This document shows positions 36,837 through 49,935 of a stretch of 64,000 bases of DNA, one piece after another. The position numbers and the translations under genes were made by a program. Position 1 is the first letter of the stretch. Every line of letters begins with the position of its first letter. Source of the stretch: Escherichia coli (GTDB lineage: Bacteria > Pseudomonadota > Gammaproteobacteria > Enterobacterales > Enterobacteriaceae); assembly GCF_024298765.1 (NCBI RefSeq), contig NZ_CP101210.1. One strand, given 5' to 3'. The notes below the pieces were generated by a model. It had not been told where the DNA came from. It searched no databases and was given only the letters and a program-made list of their open reading frames with translations.

Positions 36837-38548
36837 TGAGCGAAAAACATCCAGGGCCTTTAGTGGTCGAAGGAAAACTGACAGACGCCGAGCGCATGAA
36901 GCTTGAAAGCAACTACCTGCGCGGCACCATTGCGGAAGATTTAAACGACGGTCTGACCGGCGGCTTTAAGGGCGACAACTTCCTGCTGATCCGCTTCCAC
37001 GGCATGTATCAGCAGGATGACCGCGACATCCGCGCCGAACGTGCTGAACAGAAGCTGGAGCCGCGCCACGCGATGCTGTTGCGCTGCCGTCTGCCGGGTG
37101 GCGTGATCACCACCAAACAGTGGCAGGCGATAGACAAATTTGCCGGTGAAAACACCATCTATGGCAGCATTCGCCTGACCAACCGCCAGACGTTTCAGTT
37201 CCACGGCATTCTGAAAAAGAACGTCAAACCGGTGCACCAGATGCTGCACTCGGTCGGCCTTGATGCGCTGGCGACTGCTAACGACATGAACCGTAACGTA
37301 CTCTGCACCTCGAACCCTTACGAGTCGCAACTGCACGCGGAAGCATATGAATGGGCGAAGAAAATCTCTGAACATCTGCTGCCTCGTACCCGCGCGTATG
37401 CGGAGATCTGGCTCGATCAGGAAAAAGTCGCCACTACTGATGAAGAGCCGATCCTTGGTCAGACCTACCTGCCGCGTAAGTTCAAAACCACGGTAGTGAT
37501 CCCGCCGCAGAACGATATCGATCTGCACGCCAACGACATGAACTTCGTGGCAATCGCCGAAAACGGCAAGCTGGTGGGCTTTAACCTGCTGGTGGGCGGT
37601 GGGCTTTCCATCGAACATGGCAACAAGAAAACCTACGCCCGCACGGCGAGTGAGTTTGGCTATCTGCCGCTGGAGCATACGTTGGCAGTGGCGGAAGCCG
37701 TCGTGACAACTCAGCGTGACTGGGGTAACCGAACCGATCGTAAAAATGCCAAAACCAAATACACGCTGGAGCGCGTAGGGGTTGAGACGTTTAAAGCGGA
37801 AGTTGAACGTCGCGCGGGGATCAAATTCGAGCCGATTCGCCCGTATGAGTTTACCGGACGCGGCGATCGTATTGGCTGGGTTAAGGGCATTGATGATAAC
37901 TGGCACCTGACGCTGTTTATCGAAAATGGTCGCATTCTTGATTATCCGGGACGTCCGCTGAAAACCGGCTTGCTGGAGATCGCGAAGATCCACAAAGGTG
38001 ATTTCCGCATTACGGCGAACCAGAATCTGATCATCGCCGGCGTGCCGGAAAGCGAGAAAGCGAAGATCGAGAAGGTCGCCAAAGAAAGCGGGTTAATGAA
38101 TGCCGTCACGCCGCAGCGTGAAAACTCAATGGCCTGCGTGTCATTCCCGACTTGCCCGCTGGCGATGGCGGAAGCGGAGCGTTTCCTACCGTCTTTTATC
38201 GACAACATCGATAATTTAATGGCGAAACATGGTGTCAGCGATGAGCATATCGTGATGCGTGTAACAGGCTGCCCGAACGGTTGTGGTCGCGCGATGCTGG
38301 CGGAAGTGGGTCTGGTGGGGAAAGCGCCGGGTCGCTACAACCTGCATCTTGGCGGCAACCGCATTGGGACACGTATCCCACGGATGTATAAAGAAAACAT
38401 CACCGAGCCGGAAATCCTGGCGTCGCTTGATGAACTGATAGGGCGCTGGGCGAAAGAGCGCGAAGCGGGTGAAGGCTTCGGCGACTTTACGGTGCGTGCG
38501 GGCATCATTCGCCCGGTGCTCGATCCGGCGCGCGATTTGTGGGATTAA
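36836..38548 (+). CDS. cysI: Sulfite reductase [NADPH] hemoprotein beta component
   Basis: 570-aa ORF with siroheme/4Fe-4S cysteine motifs (CPNGCGRA); start overlaps the cysJ stop. Confidence 0.95.
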
Positions 38549-38564
38549 CCATTAGCCCGGTCTT

Positions 38565-38600
38565 GTAGGCCTGATAAGACGCGTGAGCGTCGCATCAGGC
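38565..38600. repeat. REP element
   Basis: AGGCCTGATAAGACGCGTGAGCGTCGCATCAGGC palindrome between cysI and cysH. Confidence 0.7.
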
Positions 38601-38621
38601 AAGGCAAACAGTGAGGAATCT

Positions 38622-39356
38622 ATGTCCAAACTCGATCTAAACGCCCTGAACGAACTGCCGAAGGTAGATCGCATTCTGGCGCTGGCGGAAACTAACGCCG
38701 AACTGGAAAAACTGGACGCTGAAGGCCGCGTTGCCTGGGCGCTGGATAATCTGCCCGGTGAATATGTACTTTCTTCCAGCTTTGGCATTCAGGCGGCGGT
38801 GAGCCTGCATCTGGTGAATCAGATTCGCCCGGATATTCCGGTGATCCTCACCGATACCGGCTATCTGTTCCCAGAAACCTACCGCTTTATTGACGAGTTA
38901 ACGGACAAACTCAAGCTCAACCTGAAAGTGTACCGCGCTACCGAAAGCGCCGCCTGGCAGGAAGCGCGCTACGGTAAACTGTGGGAGCAGGGTGTTGAGG
39001 GGATTGAGAAGTACAACGAGATCAACAAAGTCGAACCGATGAACCGGGCGCTGAAAGAACTGAATGCGCAAACCTGGTTTGCTGGCCTGCGCCGTGAACA
39101 ATCCGGCAGCCGCGCCAATTTACCGGTGCTGGCAATTCAGCGTGGCGTATTTAAAGTGCTGCCGATTATCGACTGGGATAACCGAACTATTTATCAGTAC
39201 CTGCAAAAACATGGCCTGAAATATCACCCATTATGGGACGAAGGATATTTATCGGTCGGTGATACCCATACAACCCGTAAATGGGAACCCGGCATGGCGG
39301 AAGAAGAAACGCGTTTCTTTGGCTTAAAAAGAGAATGTGGGTTACACGAAGGGTAA
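38622..39356 (+). CDS. cysH: Phosphoadenosine phosphosulfate (PAPS) reductase
   Basis: Track ORF 38583-39356 trimmed to the ATG at 38622 ([10 protein letters not shown], 244 aa); the upstream extension lies inside the REP element. Confidence 0.9.
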
Positions 39357-39374
39357 ATATTGCCGGATAAATTA

Positions 39375-39410
39375 AACGCCCCTGTCAGAAATGATGGGGC
39401 GTTTTTATTT
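39375..39410 (+). terminator. cysH Rho-independent terminator
   Basis: AAACGCCCC ... GGGGCGTTT hairpin followed by TTTATTTT. Confidence 0.75.
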
Positions 39411-39619
39411 TGCGAGCAGCATTCCGGCATTTAAAGGTGAACATCGCAGGGAGAATTAACAGGTATAGAATGGAGTTGGGTGCTTGAGGCTGTCTGGCGT
39501 TAAGCATTCGCGAGGTTCCAGATGGACAAAAGCCCCAGGCGATATTTCTATCAACCTGAGGCCAGCGTTCGAACCTAAGCAATTCGAATGTTAGTCTCTT
39601 CTTTGCAGGGAGGCAAGAC

Positions 39620-39772
39620 ATGCTGACAAAATATGCCCTTGTGGCAATCATCGTACTGTGTTGTACAGTACTGGGATTCACGCTGATGGTAGGCGACTCG
39701 TTGTGTGAGTTGAGTATCAGAGAACGTGGTATGGAGTTTAAGGCAGTTCTCGCTTACGAATCGAAGAAGTAG
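39620..39772 (+). CDS. Hok/Gef-family type I toxin (50 aa), hokX-like
   Basis: ATG at 39620 with SD GGGAGG 7 nt upstream. Translation [50 protein letters not shown]: one TM helix then SLCE...AYES, diagnostic of Hok/Gef. A GC hairpin follows (CGCGGGGG-TAAAA-CCCCGCG, 39778-39797). Below the ORF-track length cutoff. Confidence 0.62.
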
Positions 39773-39829
39773 CCACCACGCGGGGGTAAAACCCCGCGTA
39801 CTGAATTGTGATGGTTTGGTCTCCTGCAC

Positions 39830-40009
39830 CCTTTTTTAATTTATATTGTTTATGTGAATATTATGCCTATGTTTATTATTTATATATATTATGGATGAAA
39901 ATCATTTAATTATTCACAATGTAAATATTTTATTGAAAGATATATGTCACAGATAATTTTTAATATATGCGTGAATATCCTTTAAGTTTTACTGAAGGAT
40001 AAAAATATT
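39830..40009 (+). promoter_or_regulatory. AT-rich cas3 upstream region (probable H-NS-silenced promoter)
   Basis: Strongly AT-rich (TATATATAT, ATTTAATTATT) immediately upstream of cas3. Confidence 0.4.
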
Positions 40010-42667
40010 GTGACTTTCTTTTATTTCTGGGGAAAAACCCGACGCGGCGAGAAAGACGGGGGCGAAGACTATCACCTTCTTTGCTGGCATTCGCTGGATG
40101 TAGCCGCGATGGGCTATTTAATGGTTAAAAGCAATTGCTTCGGACTGGCTGGCTATTTTCGTCAATTAGGTTTCGCTGACACGGAGCTGGCAGCACAATT
40201 TTTCGCCTGGCTGCTGTGCTGGCACGATATTGGAAAATTTGCCCGCTCTTTTCAGCAACTTTACCTGCACCCACAACTCAAGGTTCCGGAAGGCGCAAGA
40301 AAGAATTACGAAAAGATCTCTCATTCAACGCTGGGCTACTGGTTGTGGAACCATTATTTAAGTGAATGTCAGGAGTTGCTTCCTTCATCTTCACTCTCTC
40401 CGCGCAAACTTAAACGGGTGATGGAGATGTGGATGCCCATGACTACCGGGCATCATGGTCGACCCCCTGAGCGTATGGATGAACTGGATAATTTTCTGCC
40501 TGAAGACAAAGGTGCCGCACGAGATTTTCTCCTTGCAATCAAGGTACTGTTTCCGCTCATAGAGATCCCCACATTCTGGGATGATGACGAGGGCGTTGAA
40601 CTTATAAAACAACTTTCCTGGTATATCTCTGCAACCGTCGTACTTGCAGACTGGACGGGATCGTCAACGCGATATTTTCCACGCGTTGCACAGGCAATGG
40701 ATATTGAAGATTACTGGCAGAAAACTTTAGTTCAGGCTCAAAACGCCTTAACCGTCTTTCCTCCAAAAGCAGAAAGCGCGCCTTTCACCGGAATTAATAC
40801 GCTGTTTCCTTTTATTGAGAATCCGACACCGCTACAGCAAAAGGTGCTGGATCTGGATATCAGCCAGCCGGGACCACAGTTATTTATTCTGGAGGATGTA
40901 ACCGGCGCAGGTAAAACAGAAGCGGCGCTTATCCTGGCGCACAGGTTGATGGCTGCGGGGAAAGCGCAGGGTTTGTTTTTTGGCCTGCCAACAATGGCAA
41001 CGGCCAATGCCATGTACGATCGACTGGTCAAAACCTGGCTTGCTTTCTATTCGCCAGAGTCCCGCCCCAGCCTGGTGCTGGCACACAGTGCCCGAACATT
41101 AATGGACCGCTTTAATGAATCACTCTGGTCCGGTGATTTAGTCGGGTCAGAAGAACCGGATGAACAAACGTTCAGTCAGGGATGTGCGGCCTGGTTTGCC
41201 GACAGTAACAAGAAGGCGCTACTGGCTGAAATTGGCGTCGGCACGCTGGATCAGGCGATGATGGCTGTGATGCCGTTCAAACATAATAATCTGCGGCTTC
41301 TGGGACTGAGTAACAAAATCCTGCTGGCTGATGAGATCCATGCCTGTGACGCTTACATGTCATGCATTCTTGAAGGGCTGATCGAGCGGCAGGCGCGTGG
41401 CGGAAACAGCGTCATTTTGCTTTCTGCCACGTTATCTCAACAGCAGCGCGACAAACTCGTCGCCGCCTTTGCGCGTGGTATAGAGGGCCAGCAAGAAGCT
41501 CCGTTGCTGGAAAAGGATGATTACCCCTGGCTGACGCACGTTACGAAATCCGATGTGCATTCACACCGGGTAGCGACGCGCAAAGACGTTGAGCGCAGCG
41601 TGAGTGTGGGTTGGCTTCATAGCGAACAAGAGTGTATTGCGCGTATCGAATCGGCGGTAAGTCAGGGGAAATGTATCGCCTGGATCCGAAATTCTGTCGA
41701 TGACGCCATCCAGGTTCATCGTCAGTTACTTGCCCGCGGCGTCATTCCTGCTTCCAGCCTTTCACTTTTTCATAGCCGCTTTGCTTTTAGCGATCGCCAG
41801 CGAATTGAAACGGAGACGCTGGCACGCTTTGGTAAAGAAGACTGTTCACAGCGTGCCGGAAAAGTCCTCATTTGTACTCAAGTCCTGGAGCAGAGCGTTG
41901 ACTGCGACCTGGACGAAATGATTTCCGACCTTGCCCCTGTTGATTTACTGATCCAGCGGGCGGGGCGATTACAGCGGCATATCCGCGATATTAATGGTCT
42001 GTTAAAGCGTGACGGAAAAGACGAGCGTTCCCCTCCTGAATTTCTGATTCTGGCTCCCGTCTGGGACGACTCTCCGGGTGACGAATGGTTTGGCAGCGCC
42101 ATGCGTAACAGTGCATATGTCTACCCCGATCATGGGCGAATCTGGCTGACGCAGCGTGTGCTGCGTGAGCAAGGCGCTATTCAGATGCCACACGCAGCCC
42201 GGCTTCTTATTGAATCAGTCTACGGTGAAGACGTGGCAATGCCGGAAGGATTTGCCCGCAGTGAGCAGGAGCAAGTGGGCAAATATTACTGCGATCGCGC
42301 AATGGCTAAAAAGTTTGTCCTGAACTTCAAGCCTGGCTATGCCGCCAATATCAACGATTACCTTCCGGAAAAGCTGTCGACACGTCTGGCTGAGGAATCT
42401 GTTTCCCTGTGGCTGGCTACCTGTATTGACGGTGTGGTGAAGCCTTATGCCACCGGTGCTCACGCATGGGAAATGAGCGTTGTCAGAGTGCGTCGAAGCT
42501 GGTGGAAAAAACATCGGGATGAGTTTTCTTTACTGGAAGGGGATGCGTTCAGGCAGTGGTGCATTGAACAGCGGCAAGATCCGGAGATGGCAAACGTGAT
42601 TTTAGTCACCGATGACGAAAGTTGCGGGTATTCGGCTATGGAAGGATTGACTGGCAAGGTTGGTTGA
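40010..42667 (+). CDS. cas3: Type I-E CRISPR-associated nuclease/helicase Cas3
   Basis: 885-aa ORF; HD nuclease motifs (HSLDVAA, CWHDIGKF), helicase Walker A (TGAGKTEA) and DExH box (LLADEIHACD). Confidence 0.92.
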   Translation: MTFFYFWGKTRRGEKDGGEDYHLLCWHSLDVAAMGYLMVKSNCFGLAGYFRQLGFADTELAAQFFAWLLCWHDIGKFARSFQQLYLHPQLKVPEGARKNYEKISHSTLGYWLWNHYLSECQELLPSSSLSPRKLKRVMEMWMPMTTGHHGRPPERMDELDNFLPEDKGAARDFLLAIKVLFPLIEIPTFWDDDEGVELIKQLSWYISATVVLADWTGSSTRYFPRVAQAMDIEDYWQKTLVQAQNALTVFPPKAESAPFTGINTLFPFIENPTPLQQKVLDLDISQPGPQLFILEDVTGAGKTEAALILAHRLMAAGKAQGLFFGLPTMATANAMYDRLVKTWLAFYSPESRPSLVLAHSARTLMDRFNESLWSGDLVGSEEPDEQTFSQGCAAWFADSNKKALLAEIGVGTLDQAMMAVMPFKHNNLRLLGLSNKILLADEIHACDAYMSCILEGLIERQARGGNSVILLSATLSQQQRDKLVAAFARGIEGQQEAPLLEKDDYPWLTHVTKSDVHSHRVATRKDVERSVSVGWLHSEQECIARIESAVSQGKCIAWIRNSVDDAIQVHRQLLARGVIPASSLSLFHSRFAFSDRQRIETETLARFGKEDCSQRAGKVLICTQVLEQSVDCDLDEMISDLAPVDLLIQRAGRLQRHIRDINGLLKRDGKDERSPPEFLILAPVWDDSPGDEWFGSAMRNSAYVYPDHGRIWLTQRVLREQGAIQMPHAARLLIESVYGEDVAMPEGFARSEQEQVGKYYCDRAMAKKFVLNFKPGYAANINDYLPEKLSTRLAEESVSLWLATCIDGVVKPYATGAHAWEMSVVRVRRSWWKKHRDEFSLLEGDAFRQWCIEQRQDPEMANVILVTDDESCGYSAMEGLTGKVG

Positions 42668-42764
42668 GATGCCTGCGACAGGGCTCTCTGAATAGTTGAT
42701 ACACAGAAAAAGATGGAAGGATGGACAACCGGCCAGGGATGGTCTTTTTTACGAGAGGATGCGT

Positions 42765-48625: not shown

Positions 48626-49935
48626 GTGTTCCCCGCGCCAGCGGGGATAAACCGCATTGAAAACATTGCCTTTATTTTATTTTTTGGTGTTCCCCGCGCC
48701 AGCGGGGATAAACCGGTGCCGCCGCTGGGCACTTCCTTCCCGTGAGTGTGTTCCCCGCGCCAGCGGGGATAAACCGCCCTGATAGCGTCCAGTTGAATGC
48801 GCGCCCGCGTGTTCCCCGCGCCAGCGGGGATAAACCGGCAGGCACGGGCAATATCAGACTCGGTCAAAGGTGTTCCCCGCGCCAGCGGGGATAAACCGCT
48901 CGGTTGTTTTCATATTACCGGCCTGCCACTGTGTTCCCCGCGCCAGCGGGGATAAACCGACAATATCCCGGACCGGGCGCTGATTTAGTCAGTGTTCCCC
49001 GCGCCAGCGGGGATAAACCGCGGACGGTGGGAATATAGAAAATCCGTCCACCGTGTTCCCCGCGCCAGCGGGGATAAACCGTTATACTCTTTTCATCGAC
49101 TAAGGAGGGGAGGGTGTTCCCCGCGCCAGCGGGGATAAACCGCAATAACGCAGCATCCAGGAAGCTGTTTCCGCGTGTTCCCCGCGCCAGCGGGGATAAA
49201 CCGCGATCGGTGAAGAGGTCCGCGAAATACTCACTGTGTTCCCCGCGCCAGCGGGGATAAACCGGCGATAGTTGATTCAGCCGCGCCAGCGAATGTGTGT
49301 TCCCCGCGCCAGCGGGGATAAACCGGGGCCGCCGCGAATTTACACACGATTCAATACGTGTTCCCCGCGCCAGCGGGGATAAACCGAACTGGTGCGCGAC
49401 GGCTGGCTAACAAAACGAGTGTTCCCCGCGCCAGCGGGGATAAACCGCGTGGCTGCGCTGGCCGTTGCAGCAGTTTGATGTGTTCCCCGCGCCAGCGGGG
49501 ATAAACCGCGTAAACGCCCCGTCGCCATTAATTTCGGGGTGTGTTCCCCGCGCCAGCGGGGATAAACCGTGGGATGAGCAAATAACGTCGTTTCCTAGAA
49601 AGTGTTCCCCGCGCCAGCGGGGATAAACCGCCGCCGTGCCAGTGATCCTCATACGGCCTGTTGTGTTCCCCGCGCCAGCGGGGATAAACCGAAATTAAGA
49701 ACGGCGTAAACGACGGCAGCATGGTGTTCCCCGCGCCAGCGGGGATAAACCGGTGATGATTCAGAGCAGACATTAGCCCGCGCTGTGTTCCCCGCGCCAG
49801 CGGGGATAAACCGGGTAAAAACACGGTCTGAACCGACATTCATGTGTGTTCCCCGCGTCAGCGGGGATAAACCGGACGCACTGGATGCGATGATGGATAT
49901 CACTTAGAATTCCCCGCCCCTGCGGTAGAACTCCC
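48626..49935 (+). CRISPR. Type I-E CRISPR array, 22 repeats (21 intact and a degenerate terminal repeat) and 21 spacers of 32 nt (cas-proximal array)
   Basis: 29-nt repeat GTGTTCCCCGCGCCAGCGGGGATAAACCG at strict 61-nt period from 48626 to 49846. The repeat at 49846 has a CGTCA variant; the terminal repeat at 49907-49935 is GAATTCCCCGCCCCTGCGGTAGAACTCCC. Confidence 0.97.

Follow-up and report, generated by a model that had tools for sequence, protein, structure and literature searches.

The window analysed here is a 64-kb stretch of an Escherichia coli chromosome in which cysJ-cysI-cysH (+) are followed by a hok/sok locus, an AT-rich tract, cas3-casA-casB-cas7-cas5-cas6e-cas1-cas2 (+), a CRISPR array and iap (-). 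The features around the tract are listed in Table 1. The interval under study, 39830-40009, had been described in the original prediction as curved, AT-rich DNA between a hok-like locus and cas3. This placement was borne out by an Rfam sok match, the Hok ORF and the Cas3 domains read from GTG 40010, and Pfam profiles confirmed Cas3 (Cas3_HD, Cas3-like_C_2), Cse1 and Hok in the window. Positions 39300-40300 are identical to strain 104 (NZ_CP029164), from which the window differs by one base in casA and also in CRISPR content.

Table 1. Features of the hok/sok-cas3 region, in window coordinates
Feature	Position	Strand	Remark
hok mRNA of the chromosomal hok/sok locus	39478..39837	+	Adjacent to the tract but outside it
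Hok toxin ORF, 50 aa	39620..39772	+	Pfam HOK_GEF, E=5.7e-10
G+C-rich hairpin ACGCGGGG-GTAAAA-CCCCGCGT after hok	39778..39799		From the fold; IS421/IS186-type insertion site elsewhere
Distal fast-evolving AT-rich half, left edge of the cas-E1 module (IG4)	39839..39939		Proposed H-NS-binding, promoter-dense DNA
Sigma-70-like candidate TTTATT-17-GATAAT	39929..39957	+	Own position-weight scan, score 8.4
Conserved core	39940..40009	+	Proposed to hold the cas3 core promoter, 5'UTR and ribosome-binding site
ATG used by PGAP as cas3 start in most genomes	39967..39969	+	899-aa product
T-run length polymorphism	39987..39990	+	T4 in the window, T3 in most genomes (alignment)
Shine-Dalgarno-like AAGGA	39995..39999	+	10 nt upstream of GTG 40010; read from the sequence
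cas3 of cas-E1, intact 885-codon ORF from GTG	40010..42667	+	Cas3_HD (residues 7-223), Cas3-like_C_2
cas3-casA gap	42668..42764	+	97 nt, 49.5% GC; no AT-rich control region like that of K-12
CRISPR array	48628-49874		21 repeats

We identify the left-hand neighbour of the tract as a hok/sok type I toxin-antitoxin locus, with its Hok ORF, a leader carrying the Sok target and the expected end pairing all present. The leader matched the Rfam sok/hok family RF01794 at 39478-39635 (111.7 bits, E=5.5e-26). This was the sole Rfam match at E<=1 over 38500-41000, with none inside the tract. Matching genomes annotate the ORF as Hok/Gef family protein WP_000956458.1. The whole hok transcript (39478-39840) folds at -127.8 kcal/mol (z=-4.05) with its two ends paired: the 5' GGGUGC pairs with a 3' GCACCC (39826-39831), which is followed by U6 (39832-39837). 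Because the mRNA fold closes there, the first 8 nt of the interval (CC+T6, 39830-39837) belong to hok. This 3' end is not a canonical hairpin-plus-U terminator, and a terminator scan reported nothing at that position. In strains S43 and STEC409, homology to the window breaks at about 39783-39794, beside an IS421 transposase gene, so that the IS421/IS186-type elements of these strains sit at the G+C-rich hairpin.

The cas genes of the window are assigned to the cas-E1 variant and not to the cas-E2 variant of K-12. Identity of the window Cas3 is 90-94% with other E1 proteins, whereas its N-terminus is only 28% identical to that of K-12 Cas3, and the complement of primer cas3E1-R fits the window at 40049-40068 with 1 mismatch. 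A survey of the E. coli locus describes two I-E gene sets, E1 being the more prevalent (e.g. in O157:H7) and E2 being found in K-12 (Almendros, Mojica, Diez-Villasenor et al., mBio 2014, PMC3903273). The paper also links an intergenic block, "IG4", to E1 and another, "IG5", to E2, notes hok/sok in all strains bar E2 strains, and reports IS186 insertions where IG2 meets IG3, at a site rich in G+C. As described there, IG4 resembles the tract in lying between the hok/sok-IG3 segment and cas3, in being restricted to E1 and in having an IS186 hot spot just upstream. We identify the AT-rich tract as IG4 of the cas-E1 CRISPR-I locus, an element that was already catalogued. In Almendros 2014, IG4 serves only as a structural marker of module exchange. 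In the passages searched we found no mention of its AT-richness and no promoter or start-codon analysis, and H-NS is raised there only as a caution that K-12 results may not hold for E1.

A search of 5,426 complete E. coli genomes found the tract in 2,774, with 82-100% identity, once per genome and always under or next to cas3. All of these copies are chromosomal. Matches from the plasmid collection proved to be chromosomes filed as plasmids, plus one IncHI2 plasmid with a fragment. The cas-E1 genes themselves are carried by roughly one in two of these complete genomes, including O157:H7, O104:H4, O26, O111 and EAEC 042, an E1 strain with its cas locus at 3.14 Mb. Strains without cas genes have no tract, and their homology to the window stops at 39838. 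One of the genomes ending there is FDAARGOS_1295, where hok is directly joined to iap. K-12 gave no match to the tract. Nissle 1917 was seen to have no cas genes. By this distribution, the tract travels together with the cas-E1 module and forms its left edge.

On the right, most RefSeq genomes count the last 43 nt of the interval (39967-40009) as part of the cas3 coding sequence, from the ATG that PGAP uses. The T4 allele, counted in about 132 genomes that come from chickens, ducks, cattle and humans, compared to about 2,615 genomes with T3, has an extra T that puts this ATG out of frame. Therefore, PGAP labels cas3 "frameshifted" in T4 strains, as in strain 104, 2013C-4282 and EAEC 042. Taken at face value, these annotations mean that part of the interval is coding, that cas3 starts at ATG 39967 and that T4 is a real frameshift, with the gene either inactivated or rescued by re-initiation at the GTG. 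The ATG is in frame with cas3 in about 95% of E1 genomes, and PGAP calls the T4 allele a pseudogene, both of which agree with such a reading. A comparison with Cas3 orthologues argues against it. The orthologues came from 15 other species: E. albertii, two other Escherichia lineages, Pseudocitrobacter, three Citrobacter, S. enterica diarizonae, Phytobacter, Intestinirhabdus, two Klebsiella, Pluralibacter, Chimaeribacter and Franconibacter. The codon aligned to 40010 is itself a start codon in 13 of the 15 (GTG in 10, TTG in 2, ATG in 1), the remaining 2 having an ATG within two codons, and GGAG or AGGA stands 6-10 nt upstream of the aligned start. A 14-aa N-terminal extension of Cas3, MRKYPLSLLKDKNI, was considered as real and then rejected, since it was found in none of the orthologues from these 15 species. 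The in-frame ATG is absent from Escherichia sp. MOD1-EC7003, E. coli SCPM-O-B-8794 and E. albertii, and no Shine-Dalgarno sequence precedes ATG 39967 in the window, whereas AAGGA precedes the GTG. The HD domain in Pfam begins at residue 7 of the GTG product. Also, by our own estimate, 14 open codons in DNA of 18% GC have about a 1-in-4 chance of arising without selection, and the 885-codon ORF is intact behind T4, an allele spread over birds, cattle and humans. We therefore consider translation from ATG 39967 quite improbable.

The start of cas3 is probably GTG 40010, with the ORF intact and the T-run in the 5' leader. Since the orthologues of the 15 species place the start at this GTG, the ATG 39967 start of PGAP and its "frameshifted" call are probably annotation artefacts. 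The RefSeq start of cas3 is apparently mis-set for E1, and as a result about 130 genomes, including EAEC 042, are flagged as broken although the gene is probably intact. False pseudogene flags of this kind would distort surveys of CRISPR-Cas integrity. Given the end of the hok mRNA and the start at GTG 40010, the non-coding tract would be 39838/39839-40009; its left border directly adjoins the folded hok mRNA 3' terminus, and its right border is the cas3 GTG.

The extreme AT-richness that had been claimed for the interval was clear. Its GC content is 18.3%, compared to 51.3% across the whole 64-kb window, and is near the lowest of any 180-nt segment (17.8%, starting at 39832); only 0.008% of 180-nt segments are as low. 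From 39839 to 40009 GC is 18%, dropping to 14% in the poorest 100 nt. TpA accounts for 16.8% of the dinucleotide steps in the interval compared to 4.4% window-wide, and A/T tracts of 4 nt or longer number eleven. Elsewhere in the window, every stretch other than the AT-rich flanks of the second CRISPR array lies far above 18% GC. A search for similarity between the tract and CRISPR leaders or other AT-rich tracts of the window gave no match. Two further features, a 21-aa ORF at 39891-39956 in the variable part of the tract and an imperfect direct repeat of 25 nt with 76% identity between its copies (39837-39861 and 39954-39978), were judged to be chance products of AT-rich DNA.

The curvature that had been attributed to this DNA was not supported. 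In the Bolshoy-Trifonov wedge model, the tract scored a mean of 0.146 and a maximum of 0.30, which puts it at the 49th percentile of the window (mean 0.146) and below composition-matched shuffles (mean 0.197 +/- 0.032, maximum 0.41 +/- 0.07). A phased A-tract sequence, used as a positive control, scored 0.63, as expected. The absolute values of this model are soft, which leaves the comparison with the controls unaffected. The A-tracts are not phased: a 10-11 bp periodicity of AA/TT was absent from the tract, the observed value being reached by 87% of shuffles. Intrinsic curvature and phased A-tracts are a frequent, not obligatory, feature of H-NS-silenced promoter regions. The K-12 intergenic region IGLB, a known H-NS target, is also modest in the wedge model (mean 0.166, maximum 0.40).

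The original prediction had further taken the A/T tracts of this sequence as typical of H-NS nucleation sites. Composition and TpA frequency support an H-NS target, since the AT content and TpA steps of the tract (18% vs 51% GC; 16.8% vs 4.4% TpA) are those of H-NS-silenced promoter regions. A high-affinity motif beyond composition did not emerge. The nucleation motif reportedly described by Lang in 2007 is TCGATAAATT-like; its best match in the tract has 2 mismatches (39927-39936, minus strand), and matches with up to 3 mismatches numbered 7, compared to 6.3 +/- 2.5 in composition-matched shuffles. Consensus matches for IHF and CRP in the tract were likewise at chance level against such shuffles. 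Predicted from composition alone, binding of H-NS to the tract seems reasonably probable. H-NS is able to form filaments that extend outward from nucleation sites. With its length of about 170 bp, the tract is short, and it is flanked by DNA of about 50% GC; the E1 cas genes have 52% GC and K-12 cas3 has 45%. Due to the shortness of the tract and its GC-richer flanks, there is little AT-rich DNA over which a filament could spread, unlike in K-12.

Within the tract, two blocks differ in their conservation, as estimated from five E. coli alleles. Mean pairwise identity is 97% in the hok mRNA (39478-39838), falls to 83% (minimum 74%) in the distal block, 39839-39939, and returns to 96.6% in the proximal block, 39940-40009. 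The first 291 nt of cas3 (40010-40300), at 91%, are less conserved than this proximal core. The distal 100 bp drift quickly yet hold about 15-20% GC. The core is strongly constrained and can be aligned in part with E. albertii and with one more Escherichia lineage. The sigma-70-like candidate has its -10 hexamer, GATAAT, at 39952-39957, invariant across the five alleles, and would place a transcription start near 39964. A strict consensus scan found no sigma-70 site in the tract. With a lenient scan, promoter-like hexamer pairs were about 14-fold denser in the tract than in the window overall, on both strands, with scores that were only moderate. We infer that a conserved 70-bp core next to a drifting AT-rich block resembles a core promoter and leader with an upstream platform for nucleoid proteins.

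Therefore, we think it likely that the tract is the cas3 promoter and 5'UTR region of cas-E1 and a probable H-NS target, possibly serving the whole cas3-cas2 operon. The proximal block would contain the core promoter, the 5'UTR and the AAGGA ribosome-binding site of cas3. Owing to their AT content and plentiful TpA steps, the distal block and the core would be coated by H-NS (and StpA). This coating would hold cas3 transcription low until an antagonist or changed conditions relieve it, and the tract may set the expression of the whole cas3-casABCDE-cas1-cas2 unit. Most likely, the tract is an element of an ordinary kind, an AT-rich cas promoter region predicted to be bound by H-NS.

Another possible explanation is that the tract is passive filler, the left-end scar of a horizontally exchanged cas-E1 module that became AT-rich by non-coding drift, with cas3 expressed mainly by read-through from the constitutive hok promoter. 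The left edge of the tract is the exact breakpoint in cas-less strains, its distal 100 bp evolve fast, and the scans of the tract found no strong promoter or transcription-factor site, all of which would be expected of filler. Read-through into cas3 is conceivable; hok and cas3 are on the same strand, the 3' end of hok has no canonical hairpin-plus-U terminator, and in K-12 a truncated hok leader abuts cas3 directly. On the other hand, filler would not explain why the proximal 70 bp exceed coding sequence in conservation, nor why 18% GC is far under any other stretch of the window apart from the flanks of the second CRISPR array. It also does not account for the recurrence of an AT-rich tract, with unrelated sequence, at the same relative position in other genera. 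Of 18 loci drawn from at least a dozen species, 13 have the 100-nt GC minimum of their whole 3-7 kb (15-28%) at 50-350 bp upstream of cas3. The sequences of these tracts are not alignable, and some of the loci are without hok (L011, L013, L022-L029 in our set). Because intergenic DNA is generally AT-rich, the chance level for the position of this minimum is above the length-based 5% per locus; despite this, the recurrence is a strong pattern. A passive junction is therefore unlikely.

It had also been proposed that silencing would extend over the 3' end of hok, so that derepression might affect hok and cas3 together. A single H-NS domain nucleated in the tract would have to reach into the neighbouring locus. 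In favour of this, H-NS filaments are able to spread, the tract adjoins the hok mRNA 3' end, and minus-strand promoter-like sites, whose starts are predicted near 39902 and 39920, are directed into that end. However, the hok transcript touches the tract with no more than its final few bases, and the promoters of hok and sok, like the regulatory leader, are 200-400 bp further upstream, in DNA of 45-50% GC. The expression of hok is controlled post-transcriptionally, by Sok and by folding of the mRNA. The hok/sok locus is also kept at 95-97% identity in strains with neither the tract nor cas genes. Co-silencing of hok with cas3 is thus unsupported. Coupling of the tract to hok is unlikely, and a shared H-NS domain that shifts both genes seems to us very unlikely.

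H-NS control of cas3 in the preferred reading, a silenced cas3 promoter region, has precedents in the literature, which we located for K-12 or Salmonella. K-12 Pcas3 was listed among H-NS-silenced promoters in a 2023 review (PMC10011333), and cas3 of S. Typhi was reported to be H-NS-silenced (PMC8039139). A reporter study found K-12 Pcas3 only "slightly increased" in a delta-hns strain, compared to 20-fold for cse1 (PMC7019758), and RT-qPCR gave a rise of about 5-fold in delta-hns as an average over all cas genes including cas3 (PMC5394155). In 2016, the regulators of cas3 were stated to be unknown (Majsec et al., PMC4782391). Data on activation or binding by LeuO concern the casA/cse1 promoters of K-12 and S. 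Typhi (PMC4782391, PMC8039139). Of the precedent invoked for this DNA, namely that cas3 and casA of E. coli are silenced by H-NS and activated by LeuO, the H-NS part has published support. The LeuO part is documented in K-12 for the casA/cas8e promoter. Since K-12 is a cas-E2 strain with an unrelated cas3 upstream region, its precedent is not transferable by homology. In this literature we found no transcription-start, H-NS occupancy or expression data for E1. RNA-seq of the E1 strain E. coli 042 in wild-type and hns backgrounds exists (PMC5861252, Table S1).

In K-12, the region upstream of cas3 consists of hok cut off just after its ATG, followed by about 90 unrelated bases of 34% GC, and the alignment with the window diverges completely. 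K-12 Pcas3 is CRP-activated (Yang et al. 2020, PMC7019758) and has the same role as that proposed for the E1 tract, a cas3 promoter region downstream of cysH. It differs in being unrelated in sequence, in its length of about 90 bp and 34% GC, and in its fusion to the truncated hok leader. The footprinted CRP site of K-12, ATGAGCAG-N7-AAATAGCCCGCTG (PMC7019758), is absent from the window even with 3 mismatches allowed. Another counterpart of the tract is IGLB of K-12, which contains Pcas/Pcas8e and anti-Pcas and is H-NS-silenced and LeuO-relieved (Pul 2010 and Westra 2010, via PMC4782391 and PMC10011333). Both are AT-rich non-coding regions that precede the Cascade genes of type I-E loci lying between cysH and iap, with H-NS coating as the common proposed mechanism. 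Unlike the tract, IGLB lies between cas3 and casA and has 414 nt at 29.5% GC, whereas the AT-rich DNA of E1 is upstream of cas3.

Since in this window and in the rest of the E1 lineage only a short stretch, not rich in AT, separates cas3 from casA, control of the whole unit by the tract is possible, and the layout suggests a single transcription unit from cas3 to cas2 in E1. The main caveat to the single-unit reading is a weak 5-bp hairpin with T6 in this gap (42731-42750), which could end some transcripts before casA. Elsewhere, the cas3-cse1 gap is about 11 nt at 45-55% GC in Phytobacter, C. youngae and K. grimontii, and apparently in C. sedlakii and S. diarizonae; in E. albertii it is 83 nt at 49% GC. 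More tentatively, and with somewhat less than even confidence, we propose that the sole AT-rich control region of H-NS type in E1 is the one upstream of cas3, that Cas3 and Cascade are co-transcribed and are silenced and induced together, and that this layout is ancestral to the Cas3 lineage. The ancestral layout in this proposal may span Citrobacter, Salmonella diarizonae, Phytobacter and Klebsiella, in which about 11 nt separate cas3 from cse1. In the textbook model from K-12, Cas3 and Cascade are expressed from separate promoters, and the E1 layout may differ. Knowledge of CRISPR-Cas regulation in E. coli (H-NS, LeuO, CRP, StpA and limiting Cas3) comes nearly all from K-12, a cas-E2 strain. 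Major pathogenic lineages of E. coli carry cas-E1, with control DNA that is unrelated to that of K-12 and differently placed. If the tract is the single silenced control of cas3 and Cascade, the rules from K-12 would fail to predict when CRISPR immunity is switched on in natural isolates.

The cas3 unit of S. Typhi offers a comparison in which H-NS silencing has been shown experimentally (Medina-Aparicio 2017, via PMC8039139), and like E1 it has its own AT-rich upstream region. The Salmonella arrangement differs from that of E1 in that cas3 is divergent from cse1 with a shared intergenic region, and its Cas3 is only about 41% identical. At the S. Newport locus (L015 in our set), the DNA upstream of cas3 has 37% GC, with a minimum of 22% per 100 nt.

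The RefSeq/PGAP annotation starts the cas-E1 cas3 gene, the cas3 of the cas variant carried by the window, at ATG 39967 (region of interest 39967-40012). When cas3 orthologues from 15 species were compared, their start codon aligned with GTG 40010. In approximately 130 complete genomes, including those of EAEC 042 and strain 104, PGAP labels cas3 as "frameshifted". This label arises because a T-run, which exists as a T3 or a T4 allele, lies upstream of the real start. The label on cas-E1 cas3 is, therefore, probably a false pseudogene call. The features found in the window are listed in the table below.

Features of the window and their coordinates
Feature	Position	Description
CRISPR-II flank	22104-22409	30% GC
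CRISPR-II, second CRISPR array	22410-22924	9 repeats, 5 of them variant GTTCCCCACGTCAGCGGGGATAAACCG
CRISPR-II flank	22925-23428	27% GC
Solitary degenerate repeat	23429-23455	500 bp beyond CRISPR-II
Palindromic REP-like element	38569-38601	between cysI and cysH
G+C-rich hairpin, GGGG-N-CCCC type	39778-39799	directly 3' of hok
T3/T4 run	39987-39990	5' of the real cas3 start
cas3-casA gap	42668-42764	97 nt, 49.5% GC
Weak hairpin + T6	42731-42750	inside the cas3-casA gap

In the enterobacterium GCA_016652925.1 (L011, 3001-4080), cysJIH is followed by a 195-bp AT-rich tract, a truncated E1-type cas3 (359 aa) and iap, and the remaining cas operon is absent. This is a decayed form of the same locus in which the AT-rich upstream tract was retained. 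The AT-rich tract of the window is present on NZ_MN732922.1, an IncHI2 conjugative plasmid of E. coli 49K (L017, 5662-7687). There, a hokE-like gene is followed by this tract and the first ~135 nt of cas3 (90% identity), with a copy of IS421 at the end. The segment looks like a chromosomal fragment mobilized by the IS. The G+C-rich hairpin after hok is a repeated target site of IS421/IS186-type elements. In STEC409, an IS is located between hok and the AT-rich tract. S43 has lost the cas genes, and a CRISPR remnant comes immediately after its IS.

Comparison of K-12 (L002, 4058-4415) with the window (39357-39622) showed that the K-12 hok/sok locus is broken off exactly behind the hok ATG. The truncated locus is joined to ~90 bp of DNA specific to the K-12 cas variant (cas-E2), followed by cas3; therefore, both the promoter of hok and its leader (sokX region) are directed straight at cas3. 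The cas3-casA gap of the window, in which no promoter-like site was found, contrasts sharply with the K-12 cas3-casA intergenic region (IGLB), which is 414 nt long with 29.5% GC. Strain 104 is identical to the window around cas3 and differs by a single base in casA (window ~43431; L003 position 3910), where an internal stop is annotated in strain 104. The casA ORF of the window is open, with 520 aa from ATG 42765.

Elsewhere in the window, only the CRISPR-II flanks come near the AT-richness of the cas3 tract, with 180-nt GC minima as low as 19%. In Salmonella Newport (L015, 2644-3000), a lone CRISPR repeat, GTTCCCCGCGCCAGCGGGGATAA, lies within the divergent cse1/cas3 intergenic region, distant from the CRISPR array. 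The REP-like element gave a sub-threshold match to Rfam naRNA4 on both strands (33.6 bits; gathering threshold 59.5).
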